Source: Cenococcum geophilum (Eukaryota). Taken from it: 64,000 nt of DNA. The stretch lies in assembly GCA_050273025.1 (NCBI GenBank), contig CP158635.1:8556001-8620000 (forward strand), in the 5' to 3' direction. Made by a program: the position numbers and the translations under genes. Below, in pieces: positions 4,893 through 59,582 of this stretch. The notes under the pieces were generated by a model. The model did no database searches. It was not told where the DNA came from and saw only the letters and a program-made list of their open reading frames with translations. The stretch's first letter is position 1. Each line of letters begins with the position of its first letter.

Positions 4893-5009
4893 AAGTAATA
4901 AGACTATAAGATTGTATGAGATTGTATAAGATTGTATAAGATTATATATAATAGTTAAATATATAGTATATAACTTTACCTTAATCGCACGTTAAGAAAT
5001 ATACAGTTA

Positions 5010-11954: not shown

Positions 11955-12196
11955 ATAAGACTACCTAGGAGCTACTATAGAACCTAAAGAATGCTATAAA
12001 AAAGATATAGAAGTATTAGAAGAAAATAGGTTAGGTAATATTAAGAAGGAACAAAAGATAAAAAGATTAGTTAAAGGTAATAGAAGAGCCGCTAGACTAA
12101 AGGGATCTACTACTAGTATATAAGCTATTTCCGCCTCTTCCTAATTAAAATTCTTTTTAGTCTCTTTAGCCTTAAGCTTAGCTAAACTTTACTTAG

Positions 12197-18791: not shown

Positions 18792-19402
18792 CTTAATAAG
18801 CTTTAACCCCTTTAAATAAACCTTCTTATAAACTTTCTTAAGATAGGTTAACTAAGCGTAAGCAGCTAGTCCAGTATTAAGTATTTACAACTATTTATTA
18901 TAAAGATATTAAAACTTAACCTAGGCACGATTCTACTTATTACGTAATAATTAAAGTTTACTATAGGTAGTAGAGAGTTAGTCTTTTAACTTCTTAGCAG
19001 TAGATTAAATCTAAGACCCTATAATAAATTAAATAAGGTTTTAGACGCTTATAGAGAATAATAAGACGTATATACTTAGCATTAGAGATAGATTAAATAT
19101 TATAGGACGATTATATATTTAATTTTATACACTTAGTATAGGAAGAAGGTTAGCAACTAGACGGAGCTGTAATTATAATATATACTAACTTCTTCTCTAT
19201 ATAATAAGAATAGGATAATATAACTTTACTAAGTAAAAGAATAACAGTTACTAGCTGGTTAAAATAATTAGACAAAGAGGATTTAATAAGAGGTATTAGG
19301 AATAATGAAGGTTATTAAATTAAAGACGGAAATACTATATCTGTAATAAATAACTTAAAATAGAAGAAATCTTTAAGGACGAAATAAAGAGAAAGGGGAT
19401 AG

Positions 19403-20109: not shown

Positions 20110-21717
20110 CTACTGAAGTAACTTCTTCACCTCGGGTACGACATTCTGGCGAGCCACCAGCCGACCATCTTTCTCTGGGTCATCATCAGCTAGTCCGAGG
20201 ATCTTCAATCTCACTTTTCCGCTCTTCAGTTCCTCCTCTCCAATAATGAGGACAGCACGGGCGCCGCCCACCTCTGCGGATTTAAACTGCTGTGGAAGCT
20301 TCGGTTTTACTTTCAGCGAATATTCAGCACTGATACCAGCAGCCCATAGTTCCCGTGCAAGCGCCATTCTTTCAGTCAAGAGACCGGACCCAAATGCCAT
20401 AACGTAGACGTCGAATCTGCGCGCCACAGACTGGGCCTTTCCGTTTTCGCCGCGCGCTTTGAGAATTGTGAAGATTCGGTCAATACCGAAGGAGACTCCA
20501 ACGCAAGGAATGCTGTTACCAAACATGCCCGATAGGTTGTCGTACCGACCACCCGCGGCAACGCTACCAATGGGAGGATCATTTGACTTGGTGTGGAGGT
20601 CCGGAAACTTGGTAGTAGCCTCGAATATGAGTGCAGTATAGTAATCGAGGCCGCGGGCCAAAGAGAGGTCGAAAGATACCTTATCAGAGAGCTGAAAAGC
20701 CTCCAAATAGGCACGAAGAAGATCCATATCTTCCAGGCCCGCTTTAAAGTCCTTATTCGCCGTAAGCCGGGAATCGCACCGGAGCTGATCGAGAACACTC
20801 GATATTCCGCGACCGTTGATTTGCACGTATCGACCAATATCATCCGCTACAGCAGAGTCGAGGCCCTTCTCTTCCATTTCCTTTTTGACTTCAGCCCAAG
20901 GAGATTTATCAAGCTTGTCTGGAAGCAGTCAGTAGACCGATAAAAAGCTCGATGCGATTGAAATACCAACGGCCGAGCTAATCGCGCGGATCTTGTTGTT
21001 TGGAACGCCGACCACAGTGAAGATCCCGTCGAGTATTTGGCGATGATTTACTTTAATGGTAATGTCGTCCGCTAGTCCCAACATTTCGAACACTTCGACA
21101 ATTACCGAGATGATTTCTGCATCTGGTACCATTGGATCGAACGTGCCAGCAAAGTCCACGTCGCATTGATAGAACTCTCTTAAGCGTCCACGAGAAATTG
21201 CCTGGGGGGTTAGCAGCTACAATGCATGTGGATACCCAGCTTACCGGTTGATCCCGTCTGTAAACTTTTCCAATAGAGTAACGCTTCACTTGCTGAATCT
21301 TATTCATGGCTAGCCACCGTGCGAATGGCACAGTGAGATCGTAACGTAGTGAACATAATTCACCACCCTGGTCTTGTAGATCATAGATCAAACGGGCATC
21401 TTCGCCGTATTTGCCTAAACAGTAAGCTGGAGAATCGGGCATCTAGATTCAACTTTACCTGCAAGGATTTCTTTGAGCTCAAAAACCGGTGTGTCCAAAG
21501 CCACCGCAGCATGACGCCTAAATACTTCAGTTGCCGACGCAAAAATGCGATCTCTCATGCCAATATCAGGCCCAGTCCAGTCTCTCGTTCCCTTCGGAGT
21601 CTTTAGCTGCATGCGCGCAGTCTTCTCTCTAACGGCCAAGTTGGTTGCCATGTTCGGAGTATTGCGAATGGCGCAGAGAAGTGATTTGGCTGATAGAGAA
21701 GAAGAAATCGGGCGCAT
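20110..21717 (-). CDS. HTS1: Histidyl-tRNA synthetase (class II), intact, 490 aa; exons 21717-21459, 21414-21245, 21201-20967, 20918-20110; second in-frame ATG at 21651
   Basis: Motifs [59 protein letters not shown] and [10 protein letters not shown], plus a C-terminal anticodon-binding domain. Three GT-AG introns of 44, 43 and 48 nt give a spliced length of 1473 nt with no internal stop. Confidence 0.95.
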
Positions 21718-31000: not shown

Positions 31001-34000
31001 ACTAAGGGTATTTTTAGGTAGATGAGCTAAAGTCCTACTATAAAACTTGGAATATAATTATATAATTAATTTAAAAGAAGGCAAATAACTACTAAACCTT
31101 TTTATCTATAACCTCTCTTATAAAGAGCTTAAGATTCTATAGGAGTACCTTAATAGGTTATTAGAAAAGGGGTAGATCTAGTTTAGTAAGTCGCTAGTAG
31201 GCGCTATAATCTTCTTTATCCTAAAACTATAAGGCTATATATAGACTATCGCGGTTTTAATAAGATTATAATTAAAACCTATTACCCACTACTACTGGTT
31301 AGTAAAATGCTAGATTAACTATTTAGGGTAAAGATTTTTACGAAGCTAAATCTATAAGATGCCTATTATAGGCTTTTAATTAAGAAAGGGGATAAGTAGA
31401 AAACCCCTTTTAAGACCTAATACGGCCACTTTAAGTATATGGTAATGCCTTTTAGGCTAGCTAATACGCCTATAATATTCTAATTGTATATTTATAGAGC
31501 CTTAGGAGGACTAGTTAACTATATATACGTTATCTATTTAAATAATATTGTAATCTACTTAGAAGATAAGGATTAGTATAAGTAATACGTCTGCAAAGTA
31601 CTAGAACGTTTAGATAATTTAGGCCTCTATACTAAGGCGTTAAAGTATATCTTTAATACTAAGTAGGTTAAGTTCCTAGGTTATATTATAATACCTATAG
31701 GTATAGTTATAGACCTAGTATAGGTATAGATAATATAAAAGTGGCTAGAGCTAGAGAGCTATTAGAATATTTAAGTGTTTTTAAGCTTTGCTAATTTCTA
31801 TAAGTGCTTTATTTATAACTATTCGGACGTTACCTAATACCTATTTAACTATATTGTGGAAGCTTCCTAAGACCTAGCCTAAGGAGTAAAAAGCTTTAAG
31901 GCAGGAAGAAAGAAAACTAAGAAGGGACTAACTAAATAGTATAAACTATAGTTATGGCCTAAAAATGGTTAGAAGGCCTTTTAGGAACTATATATAAAGT
32001 TTATAAAAGCTTTATTACTACGGCATTTTAACCTAGATTAGTTACTAATAATAGTTACTAATATATTAAATTTTACCCTTATTAGTATTTTACTATAACC
32101 TAATAGGTATCTAGATACTACCTAGCTCTACTAAAGACTAATAATATTTTATAGTAGAAAATTCTAGGGACCTAAAGTTAGGTATTATACCCATAATAAG
32201 GAACTGCTAGCTATAGTTAACTACTTTAAATAGTGGCGATATTACCTTAAGCATGTAAGCCATACTACTTATATACTCTACTTTATAACTATAAAAAAGC
32301 TTATACCTTAATAAGCTAGATAGGCAGAGGAGCTTATATAATTTAATTTTAAGATTAAATATAAGCTAGGGGAGAATAACCCTGTTAATAGACCGTTATA
32401 ATAGCTAGACTATGCTAAAGGCTTTAAAACAGGAGAAGGAAAATAGATAATATATATCTTACTCCCTATATTATAGAATAAGCTCTGGGTATAGAATGCT
32501 TAAGTGCCTATAACTCTATATACTAAGTCTTAGGCGGTGTAAACCCTATTAGTCTCTACTAATATTCTAGCTAGTACCTAGTCCGTTACTATTAAGGGTC
32601 TAAATATACCTAAATAGGATGTCCCTAATATATTCTTAGAACCTAGTAATATATTACCCCTAATTACTAAGCTATCCCCTTAAACTAATAGTAAAGCTAT
32701 AAAGCAATTAGAACTTAGAGCCCTATAATAACTAAAGGACTTTAACCTTATAGCGACCTTCCTAATATACGCGTATTAAAGAGTTATAAGATCTATAGTA
32801 CTATCTAGTTTTATACTTAGAGTAGTATAAAATAAAATAGCTTTTATCTAGGAAATATCTATAAGGTGTAATAGAGGGACGCTTCCAATACTATCTTTAA
32901 TATAAAAGTAGACCAAAAATATAATAGAAAGAAAGCTGCTAAGCGCTACTATTAAGAACTAGACTTAGTGGGCCTATTATATAAATATAGTAAGGTTTAG
33001 GTGCTATAAGAAGTAAATCTATAATAAGAGATCCTTATAAAGAATTATAACAATCCTTTAGGCGGCTACTATGGTTAAGCTAAAATAGTAGAATTACTTT
33101 AGCGTAAATACTATTGGCTAAAGCTTAAGTAGGAAGTAAAGAAGTATATTATCTATTATAAGAAGTATTAAGTATATAATATCTATAGGTATAAGCTATA
33201 GGGTCTACTTAAATTAATTCCTCATACTAGTAAGCTATAGCAATATTACGCTATAGACTTTATTACGAATCTCCTACTATTTAAAGATAGTTAAGGACGA
33301 ATATATAATTCGGTCCTTATACTTATTAATAGGTTTTTAAAATACGTCTAATACCTTTTTGTTAATAAGATAATTAATATATAAGCGCTTGCTAACCTAA
33401 TTAAGGAAAAATGCTTCCTTAAAGTAGAGTAGCTATACTTTATTATTACTAATAGAGGCAGCGTCTTTATAAGCTAGTACTAGTTAGACCTATACTTCCA
33501 TTTAAAGATAGACTGCTATTATAGTATAGCTTTCTATTTATAAATAGATGGGTAAATAGAACGCTAGAACTAGGAACTAGGGTCTTAGTTATAAATATAT
33601 TTAAACTACTAGTAAGATAATTAGTATAAGCTACTTCTAAACGCGGAGTACGTCTATAATTTAAAGTAATATATATTATATAAGTATGTACTAATCCAGA
33701 TTGCCTATAGCGTCTAATTATTTGAGTTTAATAGTATATCTAGTAATTACTAGCTAAGGCCCTATAATTAATTATAGGATCTTACTAGGAAGTTTAAGGA
33801 CATTTACTAAAGAATATAAGGGTACCCCTAGAAATAGGAGGAGTAATAAAAGTATGTGGAGTAGAGCCTATAAGATGCCTAAAAGTAGTAAAGACTTTAG
33901 TATAACCGTAAACACTAGAATAAGTATTTTAGAGTAGGTAATAAGGTTCTATTATGTTTAATAAATATTAAGACCTGTTAACTATTAAAGAAGCTTAACA

Positions 34001-36063: not shown

Positions 36064-39000
36064 TGTAACGGAACCTTGTAGCAAGAACTACGATGGGTTC
36101 GTCAATGGGCTAGGTATATAGGAAATGCAAGTACAAAAGTCAACAACGTAATAACAACTGGTGGAGTGGTTGCCCAACAGATTAACTCTAATTGTATTCT
36201 AAGAATCACTATAAGGAAGGAACTATCTAGGTAGGGACTAAGGGTCCTTAAATACACAACCGTACTTCTATGAAATCCTTCTTGTACGTAATGTACGTAT
36301 TATCTATATTAGACGTAACGTCCCTTACATTTAACACAGCTAACGCGTCTAACTATTATGTAACTTGCTTACTATTCTTTATTATATAGTTCTATCGGCT
36401 CTATTCTAGACCATGCCTAAATTAACTAACTAGCTTCCTCCGACTCCTCTCTAAGTAGTTATAATATTGTACTTAAAGTGTCCGTAACACTATTTCCCTC
36501 CTTTTTATCTTCGTCCTTAAAGATACCTAGCATCTTTAAGTCGTTTACTAGAGGTATAATATCCGTCTAATTAATTTGGTTAATATCGTTACTTATTATA
36601 CCTAAAGCACCTTCTTCCCTTTCCTGGGTTAAGCGTCGTCTTCGTACCATTTCTTTGATATTGTCGCTAGGTAAAGTGATAGCAATTCCTTACTCTTATT
36701 GTGCAAAAGAGGGGTTAAGTTGCGTTGCGATCGCGAGTCCTTCCGGTCGCTAACCTTCCTCTTATTTAGAATACACTCGCGCCAATATACGTTTATTATA
36801 TGATATTTATTCCGCATCTAATGCCAAATATACGCGTTCTATTACTCTTAATAGTTGTCTAGTTCCCTAATTGATTTATCTTAGGGTTTTATATTTAATC
36901 TGCTGCTACAAAGCTTAATAGTAAGCTAGCGTCTATATTACTTAAGGTTTAACGTGCCTTAGAAGAGTCTACGCGCGTCCTTAAAGCCTAACGTTTGGCT
37001 TATACTCGTCTTTAGCGTCTTAAGAAAGTTTATAAGAAGGTTTATTCTAAGGAGTAGAAACTTATAGAACAAGGTTTATAGGAACTAGGTAATGAAAGAA
37101 CGGATTCTCTTCTAATAGAGAAAGAAATAGATCTAAGTAGTTCGGCAACTGCTCTTCTTAGGTCCCCCTTAGGTGACTTATTCTTTGGCGATCCTTTTTT
37201 ATTAATGCTGCCCGACCTAATCTCTTCCGATACTCCTATACCTTTCCTATAGCATTCTTTAGGTTCTCTAGTAGCTCCTAGGTAGTCTTAGTATAGCCTA
37301 TCCACTTAACCTTGTACTATATTTCGTCATCGATGTCCTTATAATTAACGATCTTTAATACTTACCATTCGTCTTCTTCTTGTCCTCTGTACGTGTCTGC
37401 TTTATAGACTAGTAGCTTAATATCTCTATATGCTGGCTCTAGTATCGCGATATGCTGTATAGGGTAAATCTTCATTTTGGCTGGTAGGTTTAACTTAAAT
37501 GTGACTAATGAAATTCTTTTCTTAATTTCGAAAGGTCCTAGTCTAACATAGTCCAATTTCTTGCTTAGTCGTCGACTCTTGAAATTTTTATATAGTAGCC
37601 ACACTTTATCTCCCTCCTTAAGATCTGGTCCCTTAGATCTCTTAGCATTATAGTACTTTTTTATTCTTTCTTGTACTTTCCTTGCTAATTCTATAAGGTC
37701 TGCATAAAGATTCATCAACGTCTTTATTCTTTCTTTAGCTGTACTACTCGTTTTCTTCGCTTACTATAGTAACAACAATGTTCTCAGCTTATATCCGTAA
37801 TTTGCCTTAAATAGTAATATGCCTATTCCTTCTTAAGGTGTTATATTATATATAAACTATATAACTGGTAACAGTAATACCTAATTATTCTATGCATAAT
37901 TAATATAATGCCTTAGATACTATTCTAGCGTCTAATTTAATCTTTCTATTTAACCGTCTGTCTACGGATAATATGCGGTGGAAGTTACTGCTTAAACTCC
38001 TTACTCCGCTAAAAACACTTCCTAGAATACTACTATAAATCTTAGATCTCTATCTAATATAATTTTGCTTAGTGCTCTATATCTTACAAACACTTCTTTA
38101 ATATAAATTCTAGCAACATCTTCCGCTAAGATTTCTTCTATGCATGCTATAAAGTATCCCTACTTTATAAGCTTATCTACTATTACTAAGATTGCGTTAT
38201 AATCTTATCCGGTAATAGGATCTTTTAATTTTAGCAACTTAATAATAAAGTTCTATAATATAACCTCCTATAGTCTTTCTGGTATTTTAACAGGTTATAG
38301 CCCCCCATATAGCTTATGCCTTATCGGTTTATTCCTTTAGCAATTTAGATATTCCTTTATAACCTTTCTAGCTATCCTCTAGATTCTATTAATAATGTAC
38401 TCCTTCTAAAGTCTTAACACTAAGCCTATAGCTCTATTATATCCTTAGGTTAGTCCCTTATAAAAGTCCTCTACAAACTGCTCTGCTATGCTTCTTAGGA
38501 TATACTTTACTTCTTAATTTTCGTATATATCCGTCTGTAGATCTTCTAGCTATACTTCTAGAATTCTTTATACCTAAAAGCTTTCCGGTATCTCGTAGAC
38601 CTTTTTTAGTTTATTATCTTCTTAAGTTGCTATAATTCTTAGATAATTGTACCTAATTAATCTATCTATATCTTTTCGCAATAAAGCCCCTAATGGCTTT
38701 TCCTTATTTTGTAGTTTAGCTTTACGGCTTAGAGCATCTGCCCGCGTATTGTCTATACCCTTAGTATACTAAATCTCGAAATAGTATTTCGTAAGCATCT
38801 CTGCCCATCTAACCTATCTTTAGTTAAGTTCCTTTGTTGTTAGGAATCCTGTTAGGTTCTTATAATCTGTCTTAACCACAAATAGTTTCTCTATGCCTTG
38901 TAAGAATGCTCTCTATTCCTTTAATACTACAACTATACCTAATAACTCCTTGTTATAGATATCATAGTTTAACTCTAGTAGTGTTATCTTTTAACTATAG

Positions 39001-42000
39001 TATGCCACTAGGTGCCATCTATCTTAATGCCTTTATATAAAGTATGCCCCTAGTGCATAGTTTAATATATCCATCTCTATAACCATCTCTAGTCCTAGTT
39101 AATAGATCTTAAGAACTGGCTCCTAGGTAAACAACTCTTTAACTTTTTTAAAGAGTTCCCTTTGCTCCTCTCTCTATACCCATAGTTCTTCTTTCTTTGT
39201 TAACCTTGTAAATGGCTTAATATCCTTTAACCACTATGCTATAAACCTTCTATAGTAATTATAAAACCCTAGAAACAATCTTAACTATATAACGTTCTCT
39301 AGTTCCTACCAATTCACTATAGCCTCGATCTTTTTTGGATCTATGCTAAGTTGGCCTAGTTTAATAATAAATCTAATAAAATCGGTCTTCCTAGTAAAGA
39401 ACTCGTATTTCTTAATTACTACTAGCATCTGTTCTTCTTATAGTCTCTCTAAAACCTATTTAACGTGTTCTCCGTATTCTTCCTTAGTTATTAAGTAGAT
39501 AATAATATCGTTAAAATATACTATAATAAATTTATCTAAGTGTTCTCCTAATACGTTATTAATACGCTTTTAGAACGTTACTAGTATGTTTATAAGCCCA
39601 AATTGTATAACTAATAGTTTATATAGTCCTTCCTTTAACCTAAAGGCTGCCTTTTATTTGTCGCCTTCCTTAATCCTAATCTAATGGTACGCCCATCTTA
39701 GATCTATCTTCGTGAAGATTTGCGCATTGCCTATCCTGTCTTAGATTTCGCTAATTAAGGGTAAAGGATACCTATCCTTCCTAGTGATACTATTTAACTG
39801 TCTATAGTTAATATATAGCCTTAGTTTGCTATTCTTCTTTAGTACAAACAGTACTGGATAACCCGCTAATAACTGCGATAGTCTAATATATCCCTTTCGT
39901 AGATTTTCCTAAACAACCTCTTTTAACGCTCTACCTTTTTCTTTAGTAAGCTTATAGATTGGAAAGAACCTTAGACTTATTCCTGGTTCCAACTCTATTT
40001 TATAGTCCCATACTATATATTTTAACAACTTTTTACTTTCTAGTGACTATAGTTTCTTACCATACTTATAGTATCTCTTTAGTACATAACTTAGTCCTTT
40101 TTCTGTTTCTTTATAGGTTGCTCCTACTTAGTACTATACTAACTTGGCTTATTATTACATCTTATAGCGTTAAGTATCTCTAATATCGACCTAACCTGTA
40201 ATCTAATTAATCCTTAGATTATATTCCTATAACTAAGGCATACCTAATACTGCCTCATCCCGTCCTAATGGTAGGATATTAAAAGACATCTTAATTTGTC
40301 TCCCTTTAATAGTTATCCAAATAGGTCCTGTTTTAAGATTAATGATCCCTCCTCTATAGGTTATTAGATCTCCTAAAATCGTAACTAATGGGTAAGGTTA
40401 CTCCTTTTATCTATAAGGTAGTCCTATTCTCTTAACTACTGCTAGTAAGATGTAGTTTCGCGTTACTCCACTATCTATTAGCGCTTCGAACTGCTGATCT
40501 TGCCAATTAACTTATAAATTTAGGTATTGTCCTTAAATTCCTTTAAGGGTCTAAGGCTCTACCACTAGCTCCCTCTGGTCCCGTAGGCCTCTACTTTTCC
40601 TAACTATTAGCTGCTTAATCCTAGTATACTTAGCTCGCTCTTTAGCCAATGCCTAGTTTGTTTTTTATCTTTAATATACCATAGACACGTGTTTTCTAGG
40701 TATTCCCACTACTGTTATCTATCTAAGCATTCTTCCGTAAGGAATCTTCCTAGTTAAAGTACTAAGCTTCCTTCCTCTTAGACCTCTACTAGATGCCATC
40801 TATGTATATATTTAGCATTTCTATACTATTACTCGTCCGTTATCTAGTATATCCTTATAGAGTATTTCCGATTCTTTTCCTTTGGATTTTTATATATTTT
40901 ATATATATTGTCCACGCACGCAATCTATAATAACGTATAGTATGCTAGGTGCTTTAGGTCAACTCTTAGCTTATCTTTATCCTTAAGTTTAAACCTTTAT
41001 TATACTAATCTAAACGTTATAACTTTATTTATAGGTACTAAGATACATCTCTCGCTTCTCTAGTCCTCTAAACGTTCCTCTAGATCCTTTGACGTTATAA
41101 TTAAGGCTCCTTTAATATGCGTTATGGCCTTCTCTATAATTAGGTAGTCCTAGATAACTTTTTCATCCAACTATATATAGAAATCTTCCCACTTATTATT
41201 ATGCCTTTGCCTATACCACTTTTGGTATAGCTGCTGGAGTATATACGGTCTATCTATAAGGAAGCATCTTCTTATTACTGCATTGTAATAGCCCTTTATA
41301 TATCGTTCTTCGAACCTAGTTAGAATCCCTAGATCCTCTTCATCTTCTAGTTCGGTAAGCTACTTGGCTCTTAGTATGCCTGCTCTTAGTTTATTGGTGA
41401 TTCTTTATATTAGTGCTCTATCCTTTATATGTCCTAATATACTAGATCTTCTATCTAGTTTCTATTTTTGCTACGCGATAATTCTTTATCTAAATTCTTC
41501 TATAGTTTCTTTTAGTTTGCGCCTTACGCTCTAATCTTTAAAGTCGTCTTACTTCTTAATCCTAGTATTAACTTTTTAATCTTTAGTCCGAACACTTCGT
41601 TTAACTAGTAAATCCTCTAAGTCTATATATTTGTTTCCTAGTCTAATTGCTGTTTATGCCGCAGATTCTCTAATCTATAAAGAAGCCTCTTACCTCTTAT
41701 CTGTGGGTGTCCTAATTCGCACTTTAAATTCTTAACCCTTTAGATCTTTTAATCCTAAGCTTGCTTTTAACTTAAGCTTAGCTCCAGCCTTAGTTTAACT
41801 AGGCTTACTTGGTGTTCTCATCTCGTCTTAAGAGTCTTAAATCTTACTCATCTCGTCTTAAGAATCTTGTGTCTGTAGGAACTTCTATCCCAAGCTCATT
41901 CATATGTTTCTAAACTGAGCTGCTACTCTGCTCCATCGGTTATCGTCTATTATAGGTCCTTAAGCTTACCTCATCTCGTTTTAAAAATCTTAGTTATCTC

Positions 42001-44019
42001 TCATCTTACTATAAGAATCTTAAGCCTTTGGCCTTTTGCCTTTATTAAGTGCCGAAGTGGTTCGCTGTCCTACTTCTCTTACGTCTTATAAAGCGATAGA
42101 CATCATATCTAGTGGGGTTTTAATCCCTACTAATGTTCCCTATTCTATAGTGGAATTATCCTCTACCTCTAGTATGACATCTCTAAGGTCTGCTCACTTT
42201 TAGTAAGCGGCCCTTATTACCTTATTGTCACGGAATATTTCGCCTAGGTTAAATTTATCGTCCTTAATATCCGATCTGCGAACTAGTTTGTTAGTTCCTC
42301 TACATCCTATAGATACTGGCTCTTATAGCCAATAGCTTGCGCTGTACTTAGCGTCCTTATAAATTTGGTATGCGTTATTATAACAAAACGCAAAACTTCT
42401 AATTAAATATTCTTTTGTTCCTTACAGCACATTATCGTCCCTTTATACATATATATCGTCTACTAGTCTTATACCCTTTACTATATAGTGACTCTGCCTA
42501 CTTCTACAGTCTCTAACATAATGACCCTATTTTCTATAATTTATGCAAGCTCCTTCTTTAAACCATTTCTCTTGTTATAGAGTCCGCCTAAATGTCTTCT
42601 ACTATTAAGATCCCTAATTCGGCCTCTGCTTTTTAGACCTTTAATTACTTAATCCTTATCCTCTAGGTTTCTATAGTTTGCTCCATCTCTTATAGGCTTC
42701 TTTAATACCACTTAGGTCTATTAGCTCTGCGCTATACCATAGTTTCTAACTTAGCTTTTGTCGTTACATACTCTGCGCCTTATACAACTATAGAACTCTA
42801 TCCTAGCCTCTCTTAGCCTATTCCCTTTAGTAGATCTAATTGTTAATCTTAATCGCCTAATCTATTAGTTTCCTTAGGGTGTCCGCATCTTCCATTAGGA
42901 TAATCGCGTCCTAGACTTTAGCCTTAAGTCCCTATTTATACTATGCTATAAGCGCCCTATTATTCCACTCTACTTATATTGCTAGTGTCTAGAACTATAT
43001 TATGTACTTAATTACTAAAGTTTGTTGCACGAGGTTCTGGAGTTTTCTTTCTACTATAGTTGTCCCTTCTGGGTCTCTAAATATCTACGTAAGTTATTCT
43101 ACGAATTCTTTCCAACTTAAGAACATAAATCGCACGTCTTGGTTAGTGGTCGTCATTCCGTTTACCTATATCTTCGTGAGGTAAGGTTTAAACTACTTAA
43201 GTGCTTTTCCTAATAAGAATAGTCCTGCGTAGGCTATCCGATCCATAGGTATAGGTAACTTTACTCCCTCCTATAAGACCTTAAAGTGCATCTATATAAG
43301 GAATCCTTTAAGCTTTAACCTTTCTCCTATAAATCTCTTAATTAATAGTAGCTTAATCTTTACTACTCCTATTCCGTTAAGTCTTTCTTCTAATACTATA
43401 TTATTAGCTATTAGCTAGTTAACTATTTCCTATAGCTATCCGACCGTCATAGGTTGCTATAAGTTAGTATCTGCCATACTAGTATCATCTTTTGTCCCTA
43501 AAGTAGTTGCTGCCGTTAATGGCATCGTAGTAGCTACTTTTAGTAGCATGTTGTTCGACTTCTTATATTAATACTATAACTAGGTAGTGATTGTATAACG
43601 GAACCTTGTAGTAAGAACTACAATGGGTTCGTTAATAGGCTAGGTGTATAGGAAATGCAAGTATAAAAGTTAACAACGTAATAATAACTGGTGGAGTGGT
43701 TGCCTAACAGATTAACTCTAATTATATTCTAAGAATCACTATAAGAAAGAAACTATCTAGGTAGGGACTAAGGGTCCTTAAATACACAACCGTACTCCTA
43801 TAAAATCCTTCTTGTACATAATATACGTATTATCTATATTAGACGTAATATCCCTTACGTTTAACACAGCCAACGCGTCCAACTATTATGTGACTCACTT
43901 ACTATTCTTCGTTACATGGTTCTATCGGCTCTATCCTAAACCGTGCCTGAATCAACCAACTAGCTTCCTCCGACTCCTCTCTAAGTAGTCGTAACATCGT
44001 ACTTAAAGCGTCCGTAACA
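36064..44019 (-). mobile_element. Full-length Gypsy family A relative A3 (7956 bp), inserted in opposite orientation into A2
   Basis: 426-bp LTRs at 36064-36489 and 43594-44019; TSD CATAA/CGTAA; PPT at 36490-36507. The residual ORF 37362-37718 has the integrase C-terminal KKLD---GPF motif followed by EEDEW (chromodomain start). Confidence 0.9.
36598..37252 (+). pseudogene. Antisense accessory gene of A3: Zn2Cys6-like domain plus coiled coil, two exons (36598-36829, 36885-37252), 199 aa after de-RIPping
   Basis: Spliced length is 600 nt. TGY/TAY codons are spaced C-x2-C-x6-C-x13-C-x2-C-x8-C. The 55-nt intron reads (G>A)TACGC...CTAAT...CTTAG. All internal stops are TAA/TAG derivable from CAA/CAG. 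Confidence 0.72.
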
Positions 44020-46177
44020 CGTAAGCTATTAGCTATAAAAGCCTAAGTTAAAAGGACTCTAGGGTATAAGAGAGTTAGATAAAAAACTAAACTAACTCTA
44101 TAAACTAGATTAGGACTAGGACGGTATAGCTAGCCAGTAGTTAGCGGAGAAGTTTCTTGCGTACTAGTTCTACTAAGCTATAGAACCTAGGGATTAAGAA
44201 GATTAGACTATAAGCAGTAATAATAGGGTAAAAAGGCAGCTTATTAGGAGTATATAGACCTTAAGGACGCAATAATAGAGGTATAGATTAAATCTACTAT
44301 AGAGAATGGATTAGTAATAGGGATTAAGACTCTATTAGATATAAGATCTATCGCTTTATAAGATGTAAGAGAAGTAGGATAATAAGCTACTTTAGCACTT
44401 AATAGAGGCAAAAGGCTATAAACTTAAGATTCTTAAGAAGAGATAAAAGATAATATAGGACCTATAACGGAGAGCAACTAATAGGGAAGAGCAGCGGCTT
44501 AATTTAAAGCTTACTATATAAATATAGGATGGAGATTTCTAAAGGCATAAGATTTTTAAAAAGAGATAAGTAAAACCTAAGATTCTTAGTATAAGATAAG
44601 GATAGTAGGTAAACCTAGTTAGACTAAGGCTAGAGCATAGCTTAAAAAGAAAGTAAAGTAAAAACTTATAAAGTTTAAGGATCTAGAGAATTCTATAGCT
44701 AGGCATAAGCTGGAAAAAGATTAGAAAAATTTAAGAATTGGATTAAAGTATAGTAGAAGCAAAAAGATTACTAGGGACTAAAGATGTTAAGTAGACCTAG
44801 GGATAGAGCACCTTTATAAAGAATTACTAATAGGCCTAATGTAGGCATGCTAAAAGTAAAATAGCTTAAAGAACTGGAATAGGAAGAGGACCTAAGAGTC
44901 TTAACTAGATTTTTAAAACAGTATATAAAAGGCTATTATAATATAGTAATATTAAGATACTTCCTTATAGATAAGTTATATACACTTATAGAGCTGTACT
45001 AAAAATGGTATAAATAAAGAAATAATAATAACTAGGAAGATTTCTATCTATAACTAGACTAAAGAGTTGTCTAAAATTACGTAATTACAGAATGACGTAT
45101 AAGGGAGCATTAATTATAACGTCTAGGAATCTAGAAGAAAGATTAGAAGACTAGAGATATAATAGATAAATCTTAGTACCTTATAAGGATATATTAGGCA
45201 CTAGAAGAGTAATAGTATAGAAATGCTAAGTATATATATAGTTAGTATCTAGTAAAAGTTTAGGAGTTGGGAAACTTAATACTTTAACTAAAAAAATCCT
45301 TATGGAAGAATACTTAGATAAATAATAGTAGTGGGAATGCTTAGAAAATACGTGTTTATAGTATATAGACAATAAAAAACAAACTAGGTATTAGCTAAAA
45401 GGCAAGCTAAGTATAATAGAATTAAGCAGCTAATAGTTAGGAAAAGGTAAGGCCTATAAAACCTAAGGGAGCTAGTAGTAGAGCCTTAGACCCTTAAAGG
45501 AATTTAAAGACAACACCTAAATTTATAAGTTAATTGGTAAGATTAGCAGTTTAAAGTACTAATAGATAGTAGAGTAATAAGGAACTATATTTTACTAATA
45601 GTAGTAAAAAGGATAGGGCTACTATATACGTAAAAGAAGCACTTTTACCCATTAATTGTAATTTTAGGAGATCTAATAGCGTATAGAGGAGGCATTATTA
45701 ATTTTAAAATAGGACCTATTTAGATAACTATTAAAGGAAGGCTAATTAAGATGTCTTTTAATATCTTACCATTAGGAAGAGATAAAGTAAAAAACCTTCA
45801 CCGCATATGCAACCTTACCAAAAGGTAGCGCCACACTCCAAAAATTACGCATACCCATCTTACCATCAAAAACAATCGATTTTCCAACTTTCAAGACCTA
45901 ATTCCTACCGCCTAGCGAGCTAGAGGTGGATTTATTTGTCGTTTTACCCCCTTTTCTTAACAGAAAATTTTCTCTAGAGGTGGCCCTAGCTTATAAGCGA
46001 GGCACGGACAGGAACACCAAAACCACTACTACTACCACCAATACCAAAAATACAAGATAGGAGCTAGCTTTTCTACTACCTTTTAGCCTAATCTCCCCAG
46101 AAATCTTCTAGTAGGATTAGTAAGGAGAAAGGGTATAAGGATAGTAAAAACTAGGAAACCCCCCTATAAGATACAAA

Positions 46178-50054: not shown

Positions 50055-53000
50055 TGTAATGGCGATATTGCATATTACCTGCCAAATTCTGCCAAATTCT
50101 ACCAACCTATAATTGGCTCGCCTAAAGCTAGCGCCTTGGCGGCTCACCTTATATATTTATTTACATTAGTCCTAGTAAACCCTTTTTCCTTCTCCTTAGC
50201 TTAGTATCTTTATAATACAGCATTCGTTTAAACTTCGGTTTAAAGGCATTTATTTAAGCCGTGATATTATACTAAGCTTACCCTACCCTGCCTAGGAAGG
50301 CCTTAATAATATCCTATCTTAAAAGAAACTTCGTCTACAACAACGCATTAACGCGCTATACTTAGACACTAAAATAACTCTATATTACCTAGGAAGGCCT
50401 AGATAATATCCTACCTTATAAGCTAGATAGGACTAGACCTATACCCCCAGAATTAAAACTAAAGCGTATAATACTAATAAACCTTAGGAAGCTAACGATG
50501 GCACCTAAAGTAAGCTTATTTAAGAGAGCTGCCTTTACCTAAGAGGAACCTAAGATCTAATTAGGATTAGAAATCGAAGATAATAATAACATTATAGACG
50601 TATATAAGTAGATTCGCGCCCTTATAGCTAGCTAGAAAGCTAATTATCTTAAAGTGAAAAATATATAAAAGACCCTATAAGAGATCCTAGAAAGCCTTAC
50701 GACCCTATAAAATAGCCTAGCTTTCCCTTCTTAAAGCCCTAGCCGACCTATTTACTCTACTAAATACAATATACTAGGGAGTACGGGTGTGGTAATAAAG
50801 TAATTAAAGTCCGTTAAGCTCCCTAACCCCCTACCACTATCTAATAAAATAGACCCTACCTTTAAGAATTAGAGGATTTAAGTATAAGAAAAGCTCCGCG
50901 TTAACTATAACTATTTCCTTTCTAAAGAAGCTAAAATACTCTACCTCTTTAGTTAAACCACTAGGGACGCCTAACGGCACCTTTAAGCTAAGTTTAAGGA
51001 CAAGTCCCCTATCTAATTTATATCTGTTAATAAGATAATACAGCACCTAGCGGCTATTTATATTAATCTAAATAAAGTATAGGACGTCTAATATAACTAT
51101 AATTGCCTAATAATAAAACCGGACTAACCCTTTGCTAAATTTTAGACTTAATTCCTATACCTTGCGGGAGAAGGCCAGGTTCCCCTTAAGAACTACTAAT
51201 TAGACCTATATAATAAGCTAATAATTCGGCTATAAGAGAAGATTATTATAACCTTAAACAACCTACTAACTTATAATAAACTCGCAGCTTATTACCTATT
51301 ATTAGACTCAGAACTAAAGCGGATTAAAGCCTATCTTAATTAGCAAAAGCAACTCCGTGGTAATTAGAACTCGCTAGCTATACCTATAAAAGCTAAAGCA
51401 GGAAGATAAGCTATAACTACTTTTATACTAAAAGCGGTTATAACTACGTACTAGTAAGTAACGCCCGACTAGCTACATACTACGCTATTAACTAGTATTT
51501 ACCGCAATACTCTAATTAACCCTACCTTGGCTATGTGCTATAACTATAATAAGGAGGGTTACTTTACCTCGTCTTACCCGGAGCTAAAGGATATAGGCGA
51601 TATTAAGGAGATAGAGTAAGGAGAAATATCTAATAAGTTAAGAAAAAAAGAACCCTAGGGAAAAACTCCCCCCTAGGGTACCCTATCAATCTTAAAGAGA
51701 TTAATCTTAATTAGTTAATAGGTGGAAAGTATTTTATAGTTTTATATATAGTATCTTAAAATAGATATAGAGTTAATATAACCGCCCTTATTAACACTAG
51801 AGTAAATAGCTTTACCTTTATAAATACTGCCTATATAAATAATGTTGCTAAGTTTCTAAATATAGAAGCTATCTAACTAGAGAAGCCTATCTAGGTAAAA
51901 GGCTATAACGGCTAAGCCGGTTAGCCCGTTACCTATATCTTAAAGTTATATATTACTCTTAATAGACGACGCTAATATAGTATCCCCTTTTACATCCTAG
52001 ACCTAAAATCCTACGATATAATCCTTAGACGAAAATAGATATCCTATTTTAATATTTGGTTAAATATATAATAAAGATAGTTTATCTAGCTAGAGGATAG
52101 ACTAAGGTTACCCTCCTTTATTAGGGAGATCTAAACTAACCGTAAGATACTAGCTATAAGGGCTAACCCTACCTACTAGCAGGATATCCTAGCCCGTAAT
52201 CTAGCCTTTACCTAAGAAAATACCTGCCGCGAAGCTGGAAAGAACTCCGTACTAATAAAGATACTCTCCTAAAGCGCTATATTTAAAGAGGACTCTACAT
52301 ATAAAAGCAGGATAGATAGTAATATAGATAATATCTAAATTACGTAAATCTAACCAGTATGGAAAAGAACGTATTAATAGGATATAAGGGATAACCTCTA
52401 AAAAATATAATAGGAGTTAAAAGGAGTAATAATAACGCTAGTGCCTTAGAAGTCTATAAAGTTATATACGCCCCTATTATTATATAACCCCCCTACTGTA
52501 AATATTACCGTAATTAGTACTATAGTATTCCACTTTAATATATACCAGAAGGATAATAAGGTCTTTATAATAAGCCTATATAAAATTAACTAAATTATTA
52601 ATAATAGGGAGGAAGAGCTAACTAAGGAGACTAATAAGAAATTAGTTAAACGCCTCCTTCCTACTATTTATATAAATTATAAGGATATATTTTTAAAGGC
52701 GGCTTTAGATAAGTTACCCCCTTATCAGACGTATGATTATAAGATTTAATTAGAAGCTAATAACTCACTAAGTTATAGCCCCCTCTACTAATAATTAATA
52801 AATAAGCTAAAAGTAATAAATTAGTACTTAATTAATAACCTAGATAAAGGGTTTATTAAGCTAAGTTAAGCCCCTTTTACTTCCCCTATTCTATTTATAA
52901 AAAAAGCCTAATAAAGGCCTCCGCTTTTATATTAACTATTAAAAGCTAAACGCTATTACCTAAAAGAATTAGTATCTTATTCCTTTAATTAATAAAACCC

Positions 53001-56000
53001 TTATATAGCTAAGCTGGGTAAAAATCTTTACCAAACTTAATATTTATTAAGCTTTCTACCGAATTAGAATAGACCCTATATCTAAAGATTTAACTATATT
53101 CCGTACCAATTATAGCTTCTATAAATATAAAGTTTTTTTCTTTAAACTAATAAACGGACTAGCTACGTACCAAAGGTATATAAATAATATTCTTTTTAAT
53201 TACCTAAATGAATTCTGTATAGTATACCTAGACGACATTCTTATATACTTAGATAACGAACTTAAGTATTAAGTTTATATTAAGAAGGTTTTAGAGAGAC
53301 TACGGAACGCGGGCTTATAAGTTAATATTAAGAAATATAAGTTTAGGGTAAAATGTATAAAGTACCTTAGGTTTATTATAACTATAGAAGGAATTAAGGT
53401 TAACTTTAAAAAGGTAAAAGTAATCTGTAACTAGAAGCCCCCTTATATAGTAAAAGGGATCTAGTCCTTCCTTAGTTTTTATAACTTCTACTACTAGTTT
53501 ATCTATAATTATAGAATTATAGCGAAACCTCTTATTTAACTAACTAAGAAGGATACGCCTTTTATCTTTAATAATAACTATATAAAGGCCTTTAAAGAAA
53601 TAAAAGATCGGCTTATCTCTTCCCTAATCCTTTATTACTATAACCCGGACCTTAAATTAATGCTAAAAACGGACACTTCTAATAGGGTCGTAGTAGGAAT
53701 CCTATTATAGCTACATCTGGACGGCGAATAGTACCCTATTATTTTTTTCTTAAAAATAATAGACCTAGCTAAGTATAACTATAAAGTATACAATAAAGAA
53801 ATACTAGCTATTATTTAATTACTATTTTAATAGTGCGCAGAGCTTAAAGGTATAAACTTTAGGATTAAGATATATATAGATTATAAAGCCCTAAAGTACT
53901 TTATAACTATAAAGCAGCTTATTAAACGGCAAGCCTAATAGGCCGAAATACTCTTATAATTCTTCTTTATAATTATATATCGTTTTAGTAAGCAAAACTT
54001 TAAGGCTAATGCCTTAACCTAAATAAAATAAAATATAGGACCCTAAAATAAGCTAAAGACTCTATACTAGACGCGCGCCCTTCTTTACCCCAAATAGCTT
54101 AACCCGCGGATCCTTAGGGAGCTAGACTCTTAGTAAAACTAGCTAGCACTAATAGAGGAGTCTTTAAATAAACTAATAGGGCTAATTAACCGCCTTTTAA
54201 CTATAAACCGCATAGCTAATACCCTAAAGGCCCTCTGTAACTAAGCCGTAAAAAGAGACTCTAATTTTAAAACGGAGGAAGGATTACTCCTATACTAGGA
54301 GCGGCTTATAGTCCCTAACGTTAATAACCTATAGACTAAACTAATCCGCGAAGCTTATTGCTAAATTTCTATAGCATACCCTAGCAAGAATAAGACACGT
54401 AAAATTATTAACTACCGCTACTACTAGCTAAGAATAATTATAAATATTAACCAATATATACGGAACTGCGAAGACTACTAGAGAGCTATAACCCCATAGG
54501 ATAAAACCCTAAGACTACTTAAGCCACTCCTAATACTAGAGCGCCCTTAGTAGTATATCTCTATAGACTTTTATAAGCTACCTATAGACCATAACGGATA
54601 CGATATAGTTATAGTTATAGTTAACCGCTTTAGGAAACGCCCGTTCTCCCTTCCCTATTATAAGAATATTAATACTAAAGAAGTAGCCCGGCTATATATC
54701 TACTACGTTTGCTAAATTTATAAACTACCAGATACTATTATATCTAATTATAGGCTATAGTTTATATCGGCCTTCTAGAATAAGTTTACCGATATCCTAA
54801 GCGTTAAGCTAAAGCTTTTTATAGCTTACTACCCCCAGATAGATGGTTAGACGGAGATTATAAATTAATACCTAGACTAGAGGCTTAGGCCCTTTATTAA
54901 CTACTTCTAGAACAACTAGTTTAAACTACTACCTTTAATAGACTACGCCTAAGTAACTTTACCCTATAACTCCACAGAGTTTGCCCTAATTTAGCTAGAA
55001 ATGGGATACTTACCCTATATAAGCTTTAACTAGAAAAGGTTAGAAGAACCCTAGACTATATAAGAGAAGCTATCCTATAGTAAGGCTTAACAGCACATTA
55101 AATGCTTAAAGGAAGCCTAGATGGTAGCCTATAAAACCCTAGAAAAAGCCTAGAGGTTAATAAAATAGTAGGCGAATAAACACTATTAAGAGCCCGACTT
55201 TACCCCTAGTAATATAGTCTAGGTTATAATAAAGAATTAGAAAACCAAACGACCTAGCTATAAGTTAGACTATTAGATAGTAGGACTATATAAGATTCTT
55301 AAGAAGTTAGGCAACTTATATAAGGTAAAGCTCCCAGATTTAATTAGGGTGCACCCTATTTTCTTACTAGATAAGTTATAAAAAGCTATAAAAAACCTAT
55401 TACCCAAATAAAAGAACGAGCCTCCCCTACTAATTTAAGTAAACGGTAATAATAAATAGGAAGTTAATAAAATACTGGCCTGTAAGATAGTACGGGGAAT
55501 ATTAAAATACTATATTTAATAGAAGGGCTACGACCTGGACCTAACCTAGTACCCTATATAGAACTTTATAGGCTGCCCCTAGAAGCTTAAAGGGTTTTAT
55601 AACTAATACCCTAACATACCTAGACCTCTAAAGTACTTAAATAAGTAGATAGAATACTAGTATAATAAAGATAATAAGTTACTAGAGGAGTATAGGAACA
55701 AAAACGCCCTAAAGCCCTAATACAGCTATCTACCAAATTCTACCAGGTTCTGCCATTTTCTGCTAGTACCGTAAAACTTTAGATATTTAGGAACTTTAAC
55801 CACCAGTTAAAGTTATCTAATTAGTTAGATCCTTACTAAGACTTTTAGCGGCTACTCTTTCTAGCCTAGCGCGTCCACTTAACCTACGGTTACCTCTTAG
55901 TACTTAGTCCAGACGCGCTTATATCTTCTTTCTTTCCTTATCTTATATTTTATAATCTTATGTTTTAGAAGCCTAGTGCTATCTTATTTCTAACCAAGCC

Positions 56001-58696: not shown

Positions 58697-59582
58697 CTAT
58701 AGGAAAGGTATAGGAGTATTAAAAAAACAGGTTAGGTAATATTGTAGTAGTGTACGCGGTCCCTCTCGGATAGGAAGTTATAATGCTATCTATCTGTCTG
58801 TCTGTCTGTTGGTTAGTCAGTCGGTTATTAGTCGTAATCAATTAGTAGGAAAGCAGTCAGTAAGAAGAAAGGAAAGAATATATTCTGGTAGGTCGTGATA
58901 GAGAGAAGGAGGGAAGCCGAAGGCTTAATATATATAGGAAAATGCTAAGGCACTAAGCAGTGGCCTATTTTACCTCACTACAATATTAAGAAGGAGCTAA
59001 AGATAAAGGGATTAGTTAAAGGTAATAGATAAGCCGGATTATTTAAGGGATCTACTACTAGCGTATATTCCACCTTAACTTAATTAGAATCCTTTTTAGC
59101 CTCCTTAGCCTTAAGATTAGCTAAACCTTACTTAGCAAGCTAAAACTTCTTTAAGCGCACCTTTAAAAGATAGGTTAACTAAGTATAAGTATCTAGTTAA
59201 GCTTTTAGAGCCTAGGACACTTTATTAGAGTAATATTAAAGTTTAGCTAGAGCCTTAACTAGTTTACTTTCTAGTCTTTTAGCTGCTACTAATATATAAG
59301 ACCCTAAGACAAATTAAATAAGGAACCAGAATGTTATAGAAAATAATTAAAACGCGTATACTTAGCGTTAGAGATAAACTAGATATTATAGGACGACCGT
59401 ATATTCGCTTATATATATTTAGTATAAAAAGAAGGTTGGCGACTAGATAGAGCCGCAATTATAATATATACTAACTTTTACTCCATATAATAAGAATAGT
59501 ATAGCATAACTTCGCTTAATAAAGGAATTATAGTTACTAGCTAATTATAACAATTAGATATAGAGAATATAATAGGAGGTAT
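58697..59582 (-). pseudogene. A2 copy of the antisense Zn2Cys6-like/coiled-coil gene; intron 59304-59359; interrupted by a solo LTR
   Basis: Same start context, Cys spacing and splice position as 36598-37252. Confidence 0.68.
58743..58982. mobile_element. Solo LTR (240 bp) with 4-bp TSD
   Basis: TGTAGT...ACTACA ends, flanked by ATAT/ATAT. The empty site GGTAATATTAAGAAGG is present in A1 near 12035. Confidence 0.78.

Follow-up and report, generated by a model that had tools for sequence, protein, structure and literature searches.

LTR retrotransposons are usually taken to need gag and pol only. A 64,000-nt stretch of the Cenococcum geophilum genome (contig CP158635.1, positions 8,556,001 to 8,620,000; hereafter the window) raises the question of whether a Ty3/Gypsy family might carry a further gene. 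The original prediction, made from the letters of the window, was that three copies of such a family, A1, A2 and A3, share a RIP-degraded, intron-containing gene on the strand opposite gag-pol, and that this gene encodes a protein with a Zn2Cys6-like cluster and a coiled coil. Is there a gene at all, to which protein family does its product belong and what might it do for the element?

An antisense frame in three RIPped copies

A3 (36598-37252, + strand), A2 (58697-59582, - strand) and A1 (11994-19296, - strand), the last interrupted by a nested element, have in common an antisense frame that is located in the spacer from pol to the 3' LTR. Coordinates, frames and cysteine pattern, when re-read from the sequence, were as predicted. 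From the ATA at 36598 the A3 frame reads Y-x2-C-x6-C-x13-Y-x2-Y-x8-Y, with the second and third cysteines still in place; the Y/C spacing in A2 and A1 is identical, and A1 retains the fifth. Exon 1 of A3 (36598..36829, +) consists of the RIPped start codon, about 30 N-terminal codons and then the six-Cys motif (codons at 36691, 36700, 36721, 36763, 36772 and 36799, +). It is followed by a phase 1 intron of 55 nt (36830..36884, +) that splits a Trp codon T/GG, with a donor that RIP has turned from GT to AT and a TAG acceptor, and by exon 2 (36885..37252, +), which holds the long helix region, a conserved basic motif and an acidic-hydrophobic tail before the stop codon at 37250-37252 (+). Spliced, the frame measures 600 nt, or exactly the 200 codons foreseen, stop included.

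A2 and A1 have the same organization. A2 comprises exon 1 (59360..59582, -; 78.8 bits in hmmsearch with profile A4), a 56-nt intron (59304..59359, -) and an exon 2 (58697..59303, -) that is broken by an insertion of ~190 nt with a CAGA/TAGA microsatellite and is matched by profile A5 at 59301-58981. In A1, exon 1 (19074..19296, -; 80.1 bits with profile A4) and a 55-nt intron (19019..19073, -) precede a first part of exon 2 (18794..19018, -), which is ended by the nested LTR element at 12191-18793; the last part (11994..12190, -) contains the profile A5 match at 12098-11997 and the stop codon at 11994-11996. Intron phase is the same in all three copies, as is the split Trp codon. All three are dead through RIP. 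A Pfam search of nine RIPped antisense frames in the window gave no match at E<=10, and a profile search showed the gene to be absent from the other Gypsy families of the window.

The 3' LTR (36066..36490, -) and 5' LTR (43596-44020) of A3 are 90.8% identical over 425 bp. Between the 3' LTR and the antisense start codon lies a leader (36491..36597, +), the complement of the polypurine tract region, in which a pyrimidine-rich + strand stretch adjoins the LTR edge. The RIPped gag-pol (37206..43414, -; span from tblastn) matches RVT_1, RT_RNaseH, SH3_Tf2-1, protease and Retrotrans_gag when Pfam is run on the sense frames; Chromo was not matched on these frames at E<=0.01, and the chromodomain of the original prediction is a by-eye reading. 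The C-terminal tail of pol (37020..37252, -) overlaps the 3' part of antisense exon 2, as had been proposed.

Recovery of the gene from many dead copies

If RIP has erased the signals of a gene from each copy, they should be recoverable in part from a larger sample. We therefore aligned A3 with 71 further copies of the family from metagenome contigs (loci L001-L080), keeping only blast rows in which at least 780 of the 810 bases of the query were covered. These 71 copies are near-full-length in blastn against the A3 region, and exon 1 is in frame in 70 and exon 2 in 68 of them. The gene sits between pol and the 3' LTR, opposite gag-pol, in 3/3 window copies and 71/71 fetched copies. Across the 72 rows the start codon is ATG in 12, which supports the reading of ATA as a RIPped ATG, and TGY is found at each of the six cysteine sites (Cys1 30, Cys2 44, Cys3 20, Cys4 19, Cys5 51 and Cys6 23 of 72). 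The donor is GT (G at 36830) in 14 rows and the acceptor AG in 64. Start, cysteines and donor can thus each be seen in unmutated form in part of the sample, and the claim that RIP hides the gene stands.

The alignment also contains the signature of selection on the antisense frame that had been named as a check. Intron length is 55 nt in 71/72 rows, gap runs in the exons are nearly all 3, 6, 12, 21, 33 or 45 nt long, and splicing leaves a length divisible by 3 in 68/72 rows. Columns with transversions are unevenly distributed over antisense codon positions both in exon 1 (17/77, 3/76 and 29/76; p=1.8e-6) and in exon 2 (26/129, 21/130 and 48/130; p=1.9e-4). As controls, the IN region of pol showed periodicity (3/200, 1/200 and 18/200; p=5e-6) and the LTR showed none (17, 25 and 24 of 127; p=0.35). 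Note that the codon phase moves by one base across the intron, so that a continuous sense ORF cannot account for the periodicity.

One element of the original prediction is contradicted by these data, namely that the intron is more diverged than the exons. Identity between the window copies is 0.67-0.75 in the intron, compared to 0.53/0.54/0.81 in exon 1 and 0.51-0.63 in exon 2, and over the 72 rows only 7/55 intron columns are polymorphic for transversions, against 49/229 in exon 1 and 95/389 in exon 2. The leader is likewise very conserved, with transversion polymorphism in 6/107 columns.

Intact relatives and splicing

Intact, un-RIPped relatives are numerous in protein databases: a profile of exon 1 retrieved 242 representatives at E<=1e-3, of which 144 reach E<=1e-10. 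An NCBI name is absent from all 116, 37 and 16 homologues found. All six cysteines, whose presence in un-RIPped homologues had been put forward as a check, are intact in 6 of 291 fetched proteins, P0181 and P0188 among them.

Ten of the 291 (P0152, P0153, P0169, P0181, P0188, P0193 and P0197-P0200) join the end of exon 1, W and the start of exon 2 directly across the predicted T/GG junction, where these intronless relatives read ...EW|SRV.... They are encoded on contigs of 921-1629 nt. P0195 and P0196 read from the intron into exon 2, P0195 on a contig of 120,785 nt. The exon 2 of P0197-P0200, which is joined to exon 1, is identical to that of P0196 or 1-2 residues apart, and P0195-P0200 fall into one 90% cluster; the same exon 2 therefore exists with and without the intron. 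The intronless forms are best read as spliced mRNA, a reading drawn from sequence comparison, the records themselves being silent on RNA.

We also looked for RNA evidence in the window organism by aligning X21, X19, X17 and X1 to 36066-38000 at 85% likeness. X21 consists of raw RNA reads, ~12% of the run having been read, and the tables of X17 and X19 are near identical and perhaps represent one data set. Only 43 partial reads of X21 aligned, all less than 95% alike and mostly on the LTR. A 541-nt contig (X17/X19) spans 36817-36928 with the intron retained. The window copy showed no sign of expression in 3 RNA-labelled runs, and none of the runs contained a splice joint at 36829/36885; these data lend no support to expression of the window copy, and they do not count against the gene.

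The codon periodicity, the frame-preserving indels, the fixed intron and the occurrence of un-RIPped forms with and without that intron lead us to conclude that the family possesses a genuine antisense, selected, spliced accessory protein gene that RIP has hidden. This Ty3/Gypsy family has, besides gag and pol, a third gene on the opposite strand with one 55-nt spliceosomal intron. As it runs antisense to the genomic RNA, this intron is passed on in every round of retrotransposition.

A six-cysteine module and a long helix

The encoded protein has ~200-205 residues. It appears to be built from a short N-terminal helix, the six-Cys module, a helix of ~100 residues that would carry the family's most conserved, strongly basic motif, and an acidic-hydrophobic C-terminal tail. 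AlphaFold models of P0188 and P0181 contain the helix (residues 98-199 with pLDDT >90 and residues 77-151 with pLDDT 95-98, respectively), and the tail of P0188 is disordered. In P0188, 7 K/R stand against 2 D/E in residues 53-96 and 1 K/R against 6 D/E in the tail. In the best heptad register, L/I/V/M occupy 31% of a/d positions, so that the coiled coil assigned to exon 2 is not supported in its classical form, although a long helix is modelled. Nor did structure prediction, suggested as a check on the zinc cluster, give a confident fold for the Cys module, where pLDDT is ~47-65 in both models.

Does the module belong to a known family? The spacing C-x2-C-x6-C-x13-C-x2-C-x8-C, common to the window copies and to intact P0181 and P0188, is most simply viewed as a predicted zinc-binding module with two C-x2-C-x6/8-C halves, like the binuclear Zn2Cys6 cluster. 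The classical Zn2Cys6 consensus is C-x2-C-x6-C-x5-12-C-x2-C-x6-8-C, and the linker exceeds its range by one residue. The spacing fits the Zn2Cys6 assignment of the original prediction in all but the 13-residue linker, and the Pfam score falls short of it: the best match to Zn_clus (PF00172) reaches 17.2 bits (E=0.0058, locus L060), the cut-off being 21 bits. Zn_clus is nevertheless the most frequent Pfam family among 73 RIPped copies (6/73 at E<=10), with alignments confined to model positions ~17-36 of 39, about half of the model. Un-RIPped P0181 scores 13.6 bits, below the cut-off, and 12 database homologues, six-Cys P0038 included, have no Zn_clus match at E<=1. The top match of P0181 in a phmmer search of the PDB is PPR1 (1pyi), which is not significant (E=0.56), and searching PDB sequences with profiles A4 (RIPped) and A7 (un-RIPped) returned no related or Zn2Cys6 chain. 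In the ESM Atlas, one of the nearest clusters, from Ascomycota with 204 aa and a score of 0.91, bears the automatic name Zn(2)-C6 fungal-type domain protein; a query restricted to the Cys part returned no Zn_clus cluster and scored at best 0.85, to unnamed clusters. CGG-pair motifs occur 1, 0 and 3 times in the de-RIPped consensus of the LTR and 1.8, 1.7 and 3.5 times in shuffles, which is no enrichment.

The antisense protein resembles Gal4-type proteins in that its six cysteines form two C-x2-C-x6/8-C halves ahead of a long helix, and it shows local similarity to PPR1 and to the latter half of the PF00172 model. It differs from them in its 13-residue linker, in a score below cut-off in every sequence tested and in the partial alignment; moreover, typical PF00172 members have a large regulatory domain, whereas the ~200 aa antisense protein is without one.

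Matches to a second family, DUF3716 (PF12511), are weak as well. Of 73 copies, 3 match it, over the N-terminal helix plus the first three cysteines, with at most 14.1 bits (E=0.046; cut-off 22 bits). P0181 has no match to DUF3716 at E<=10. An Atlas cluster with DUF3716 in 28% of its members was found with the Cys part as query (score 0.77). DUF3716 is described as a Cys-rich fungal domain that occurs in two accessory proteins of REP9, a class II transposon of Zymoseptoria (PMC8232023), and is in that description, like the module here, transposon-borne in ascomycetes. If the protein is a regulator of the kind discussed below, element-borne six-Cys and DUF3716-like modules would form an unclassified sister of the fungal Zn2Cys6 domain.

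What might the protein do?

Having established that the gene is real, we consider the best explanation as a whole to be that this third gene encodes a self-regulator with a predicted zinc module that binds nucleic acid, to which we would give a probability of roughly 0.55. The product would be nuclear and probably oligomeric. Translated from a spliced antisense mRNA for the element's own use, it would tune transcription of the element via the LTR or chromatin, where activation and restraint are both conceivable. By analogy, such a logic would resemble that of HBZ of HTLV-1 or of the accessory transactivators of complex retroviruses. A narrower version makes the protein the element's own miniature Gal4-like transactivator, in which a predicted zinc-cluster head would bind DNA, the helix would oligomerise and contain a nuclear signal, and the acidic tail would activate; it would be produced from the spliced antisense mRNA and act on the LTR. 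We regard this version as doubtful; if true, the protein would be the first transcription factor known on a retrotransposon of fungi and would correspond in function to the transactivators of retroviruses.

Might there be no gene after all? A Cys/Tyr pattern could arise by chance in Tyr-rich RIPped DNA, and Tyr does make up 7.2% of codons across all six frames of the window. A relaxed [CY] pattern occurs 7 times in these frames (~128,000 codon positions), three times in the A copies and four times at unrelated places. Yet only ~0.05 occurrences are expected by chance in a 750-bp spacer, and TGY is recovered at all six sites, so that we reject a chance pattern. Alternatively, the frame might be no more than the complement of a sense extension of pol, a possibility that the original prediction had itself raised: once de-RIPped, the sense frame is open for ~90 codons beyond the chromodomain-like part, down to a TAA at 37022-37020 that is present in 70/72 rows. 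However, the periodicity is antisense and shifts across the intron, and in the overlap (37022-37139) variation by antisense codon position is 4/40, 4/39 and 12/39, which places it at antisense third positions, that is at sense second positions. This, together with the many intact homologues, rules out the sense complement and leaves the absence of a gene most improbable. Unlikely, too, is a model in which the functional product is an antisense RNA that pairs with genomic RNA and feeds small-RNA control of copy number, the frame being incidental. The transcript would be able to pair with the 3' end of pol and with the polypurine-tract region, the leader (6/107 transversion columns) and the intron (7/55) are more conserved than the exons, and one review considers regulation by antisense RNA in such elements (PMC7264820). 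The codon periodicity, the frame-preserving indels and the conservation of Cys, start and stop codons nonetheless signify selection at the protein level; an RNA role may exist in addition and cannot be the sole one.

The alternative with the greatest claim to attention, less probable than self-regulation though quite possible, is a real protein with another role: nuclear import or chromatin targeting of the pre-integration complex, packaging or chaperoning of RNA, or the blocking of host silencing (quelling, RIP-linked methylation). All evidence for the reality of the gene applies to it equally. No DNA-binding family reaches threshold, and 21-24% of exon columns have transversions compared to 22/600 (3.7%) in IN, which would fit an arms race with the host. 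In its treatment of plant antisense ORFs, the same review leaves such roles open (PMC7264820). Against this alternative, the only named pointers, weak as they are, lead towards Zn2Cys6 proteins, and the protein shares its layout of six-Cys module, long helix and acidic-hydrophobic tail with small fungal activators. On either view, a third, antisense, intron-bearing gene that is under protein-level selection throughout a large family and widespread in environmental fungal sequence would point to an element-borne regulator or counter-defence factor, and such elements would thereby resemble complex retroviruses. The role of such genes can be approached through P0188 and P0181, intact and apparently expressed relatives that provide concrete proteins for testing. 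More generally, many dead copies taken together allow a rigorous recovery of genes that RIP has wrecked and that gene annotation of fungal repeats overlooks.

Antisense genes in other LTR elements

HBZ, a bZIP protein of HTLV-1 with a long helix, is encoded antisense near the 3' LTR and translated from a spliced mRNA. The gene described here resembles it in outline, by encoding a candidate regulator with a long helix, by its antisense position close to the 3' LTR and by a spliced mRNA, which is an analogy rather than a homology: HBZ has no Cys cluster, its intron lies near the mRNA start, and its bearer is a retrovirus of people. To our knowledge, plant antisense ORFs have no sequence relation to the window gene either. 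They comprise the aORF-3R group, with gene23 of maize Grande and its counterparts in rice RIRE2, Silene Retand and Phaseolus PvRetro13, and are covered by a review that also places an antisense promoter in the 3' LTR of HTLV-1 (PMC7264820). As described there, they share with our gene the position between pol and the 3' LTR, the orientation, the presence in most copies of a family and a suspected nuclear role; they differ in belonging to plants and mostly to non-chromovirus lineages and in having much longer spacers, and the available text reports no Cys6 module (PMC7264820).

Antisense passenger genes are therefore a kind already known, and the present gene is less new than the original prediction assumed. 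Our literature search found no paper that joins an antisense LTR-retrotransposon gene with Zn2Cys6 and, among the papers listed for antisense genes in Gypsy elements of Ascomycota, none with a zinc cluster, and the text of Muszewska 2011 (PMC3248453) contains neither "antisense" nor "zinc". The closest precedent is brtn, an antisense gene reported in 2011 from Boty-like fungal Gypsy elements of grey mould (Virology 417:248; cited in PMC8365987 and PMC7264820), of which a "brtn-106" is mentioned in PMC4227169. As the citing papers portray it, brtn is likewise an extra gene of a filamentous ascomycete Gypsy element that occupies the interval from pol to the 3' LTR and runs antisense to gag-pol, so that its likeness to the window gene concerns position and orientation. 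For Monilinia, one transcript reportedly corresponds to a truncated Pol as well as to BRTN (PMC5987419), which is what an overlap with the end of pol would produce.

The antisense gene and the elements that carry it

The window is AT-rich fungal DNA that bears the signature of repeat-induced point mutation (RIP; TpA/ApT 1.64, (CpA+TpG)/(ApC+GpT) 0.50, judged against the usual thresholds for both dinucleotide indices; a GC-richer island gives 0.76 and 1.14), and it is made up of nested Ty3/Gypsy elements. A1, A2 and A3 are RIPped copies of one family. A3 (36066-44020, minus strand) is flanked by LTRs at 36066-36490 and 43596-44020 that are 90.8% alike over 425 bp, and is inserted within gag of A2 (34435-60110, plus strand), which holds further nested inserts; A1, also on the plus strand, has its 3' end at the LTR 19416-19748 and is split by the LTR element nested at 12191-18793. 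Read through stops, the sense frames of A3 match the Pfam families RVT_1, RT_RNaseH, SH3_Tf2-1, aspartyl protease and Retrotrans_gag.

Antisense to pol, an ATA at 36598 in A3 opens a frame with the pattern Y-x2-C-x6-C-x13-Y-x2-Y-x8-Y. The reading continues for 232 nt, skips 55 nt (36830-36884), shifts by one base and ends with the stop codon 37250-37252; spliced together, the parts amount to 600 nt. The same layout is found in A2 and A1, their introns measuring 56 and 55 nt, so that the original prediction of a shared Cys spacing, 55-56 nt introns and a spliced length of 600 nt in A3 holds for the sequence as read. Of seven occurrences of the relaxed [CY] motif in a six-frame reading of the window, three are the A1, A2 and A3 copies; by itself, the spacing is suggestive, not decisive. 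In A2, the 3' part of exon 2 is broken at 58740-58980 by about 190 nt of inserted DNA that includes a CAGA/TAGA microsatellite. Profiles of exons 1 and 2 find no match in the other Gypsy families nested in or adjoining these copies (12191-18793, 50057-56248 and 31229-32380; pol 30-35% identical to A3), so that the antisense gene is confined to a single lineage.

Selection on the antisense frame

Scanning metagenome contigs with an alignment of the A3 and A1 integrase regions yielded 611 matching stretches, 520 of them confirmed; the best 80 loci show 69-79% amino-acid identity and come from two metagenomes only. A blastn search with the A3 tail returned 82 rows, and the 71 that covered at least 780 of 810 bases form, along with A3, an alignment of 72 rows. 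RIP is present in every row, with four stops in the spliced frame of the best row (the terminal one included) and eight in A3. Since RIP makes C-to-T and G-to-A changes only, a C or G kept in any copy represents the older state. The start codon reads ATG in 12 of 72 rows, Cys codons 1-6 read TGY in 30, 44, 20, 19, 51 and 23, and the splice sites retain a GT donor in 14 and an AG acceptor in 64; in one copy (L041) none of the six Cys has been lost. The unmutated states that RIP was proposed to have masked at the ATG and the Cys codons thus survive in subsets of rows, as does the GT donor.

Because RIP cannot produce transversions, we considered columns where purines and pyrimidines each occur in at least three copies. 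Tallied in this way, as columns rather than independent events, transversions fall at the three antisense codon positions in 17/77, 3/76 and 29/76 columns of exon 1 (p=1.8e-6) and 26/129, 21/130 and 48/130 columns of exon 2 (p=1.9e-4). The integrase region of pol, a positive control read in its sense frame, gives 3/200, 1/200 and 18/200 (p=5e-6), and the LTR, a negative control, 17, 25 and 24 of 127 (p=0.35). Counted as copies and not as separate events, indels behave accordingly: gap runs within exons are 3, 6, 12, 21, 33 or 45 nt long, save for five exceptions (four singleton lengths); the intron measures 55 nt in 71/72 rows, and splicing leaves a length divisible by three in 68/72.

Might the frame be no more than the complement of a conserved sense-strand ORF? 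The de-RIPped sense frame of pol does stay open past a chromodomain-like stretch to a TAA at 37022-37020, present in 70/72 rows, each earlier stop having CAG, CAA, CGG or TGG versions in at least two copies, so that exon 2 and the pol tail share about 230 nt. Two observations rule this explanation out. The third-position peak holds in both exons only when the 55 nt are taken out, with the attendant frame shift, which is not what a continuous ORF on either strand would give. Moreover, variation across 37022-37139 concentrates on third positions of the antisense frame, the second positions of sense codons (4/40, 4/39, 12/39), so that the antisense frame is the one selected there. The last 113 nt of the overlap hardly vary at all (6/113).

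The intron had been described as more diverged than the exons. The 72 rows point the other way: transversion columns make up 7/55 of the intron (36830-36884) and 6/107 of the leader (36491-36597), compared with 21-24% in exons, a pattern that suggests cis-acting roles for leader and intron, for example as opposite-strand polypurine tract, promoter/5' UTR or splice signals.

Intact and spliced relatives

Among 1.84 billion proteins, the exon-1 profile (73 rows) finds 242 representatives at E<=1e-3; the 29 examined among the best 150 are short ORFs, mostly of RIPped DNA. The exon-2 profile finds 37 proteins, the intact relative P0181 16 and a profile of the un-RIPped form 116, all from JGI or ENA assemblies and all lacking a Pfam domain or an informative name. 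Of 291 proteins fetched, 10 (P0152, P0153, P0169, P0181, P0188, P0193 and P0197-P0200, whose contigs are 921-1629 nt long) join the end of exon 1 via Trp to the first residues of exon 2, precisely where the T/GG junction was predicted, and eight run from intron sequence into exon 2. Both forms occur in one 90% cluster, where P0195 (contig of 120,785 nt) and P0196 read through the intron and P0197-P0200 lack it; P0197 and P0196 share an identical exon 2, from which P0198-P0200 depart at one or two residues. As an antisense intron cannot be lost via the element's own RNA, the intronless relatives are most simply regarded as putative assembled mRNAs. Another protein, P0049, joins the two exons via only five residues in place of the 55-nt intron and could be a shortened-intron copy or an alternative splice product.

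Codon periodicity, in-frame indels, a fixed intron and the coexistence of intronless and intron-bearing relatives establish that the element carries a gene which is under selection and, in relatives, spliced. The antisense gene is real, and the initial observation is confirmed and sharpened.

RNA from the organism itself adds little. A splice junction at the A3 intron had been proposed as a check; across 36066-38000, three RNA-labelled runs and one DNA run reveal none and contain next to no RNA, and one contig retains the intron. This is expected of dead copies and has no bearing on the family. Two of the runs, X17 (labelled a metatranscriptome) and X19 (labelled 'organism A'), have near-identical contig tables on this region and may be one data set filed twice, not to be counted as two.

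The predicted protein

The six Cys of P0188 (239 aa, including upstream read-through) are residues 55, 58, 65, 79, 82 and 91, and Trp 101 marks the junction. AlphaFold leaves the Cys part at low confidence (pLDDT about 53-64) between a short N-terminal helix and a single long helix (98-199, pLDDT above 90) followed by a disordered tail; P0181, with a deeper alignment, gives a matching picture. Conservation in the family is strongest in a basic motif within the helix, and next in the acidic, hydrophobic stretch formed by the last ~25 residues.

Among Pfam families the RIPped copies match Zn_clus most often, below threshold throughout and each time with one Cys triplet placed on the model's second half. 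For intact P0181 the Zn_clus score is 13.6 bits and the best PDB sequence match is PPR1 (E=0.56). DUF3716, the one further family with weak matches here, scores lower still than Zn_clus; a neighbouring Atlas cluster of ascomycete proteins 204 aa long carries the automatic name Zn(2)-C6 domain protein. With Zn_clus, PPR1, DUF3716 and AlphaFold all short of confidence, the likeness originally drawn to Zn2Cys6 proteins stands for the six-Cys spacing but not for family membership: the module appears Zn2Cys6-like by spacing and is not assigned to a family.

Known counterparts and a possible role

Features of this kind have been described before. According to four citing papers, the Boty-like Gypsy elements found in Botrytis and Sclerotinia carry an extra gene, brtn, which like ours is antisense and occupies the interval from pol to the 3' LTR (Zhao et al. 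2011, via PMC8365987, PMC7264820, PMC4227169, PMC5987419). For the plant cases Grande, RIRE2, Retand and PvRetro13, also antisense, a review gives functions as unknown (PMC7264820). Literature tying a zinc cluster to such an antisense retrotransposon gene was not found. The class II transposon REP9 of Zymoseptoria is described as having two accessory proteins with DUF3716 (PMC8232023), and accessory proteins rich in Cys may recur more widely in transposons of ascomycetes.

The product would be a zinc-binding, nuclear, probably oligomeric regulator that might act on transcription of its own element. We offer both the Zn2Cys6 identity and the LTR-activator role as hypotheses; a search of the LTR for a CGG-pair signal found none.

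Other features of the window

A 255-aa ORF (20110-20877, minus strand), located in a GC-richer island (GC 0.49) without RIP signature, matches the C-terminal part of histidyl-tRNA synthetase with its anticodon-binding domain (PF13393, E=4e-14; PF03129, E=8e-12) and, from these matches, looks like a host gene wedged between RIPped elements. Four or five neighbouring tandem-repeat arrays (3595-5637; units of 18, 20/78, 12/27/39 and 41 nt) separate the 5' LTR region of A1 from its gag and reach at most 19 copies with 77-91% matches. A 178-aa ORF (4358-4894) sits within one of them, and its Pfam matches look like repeat artefacts.
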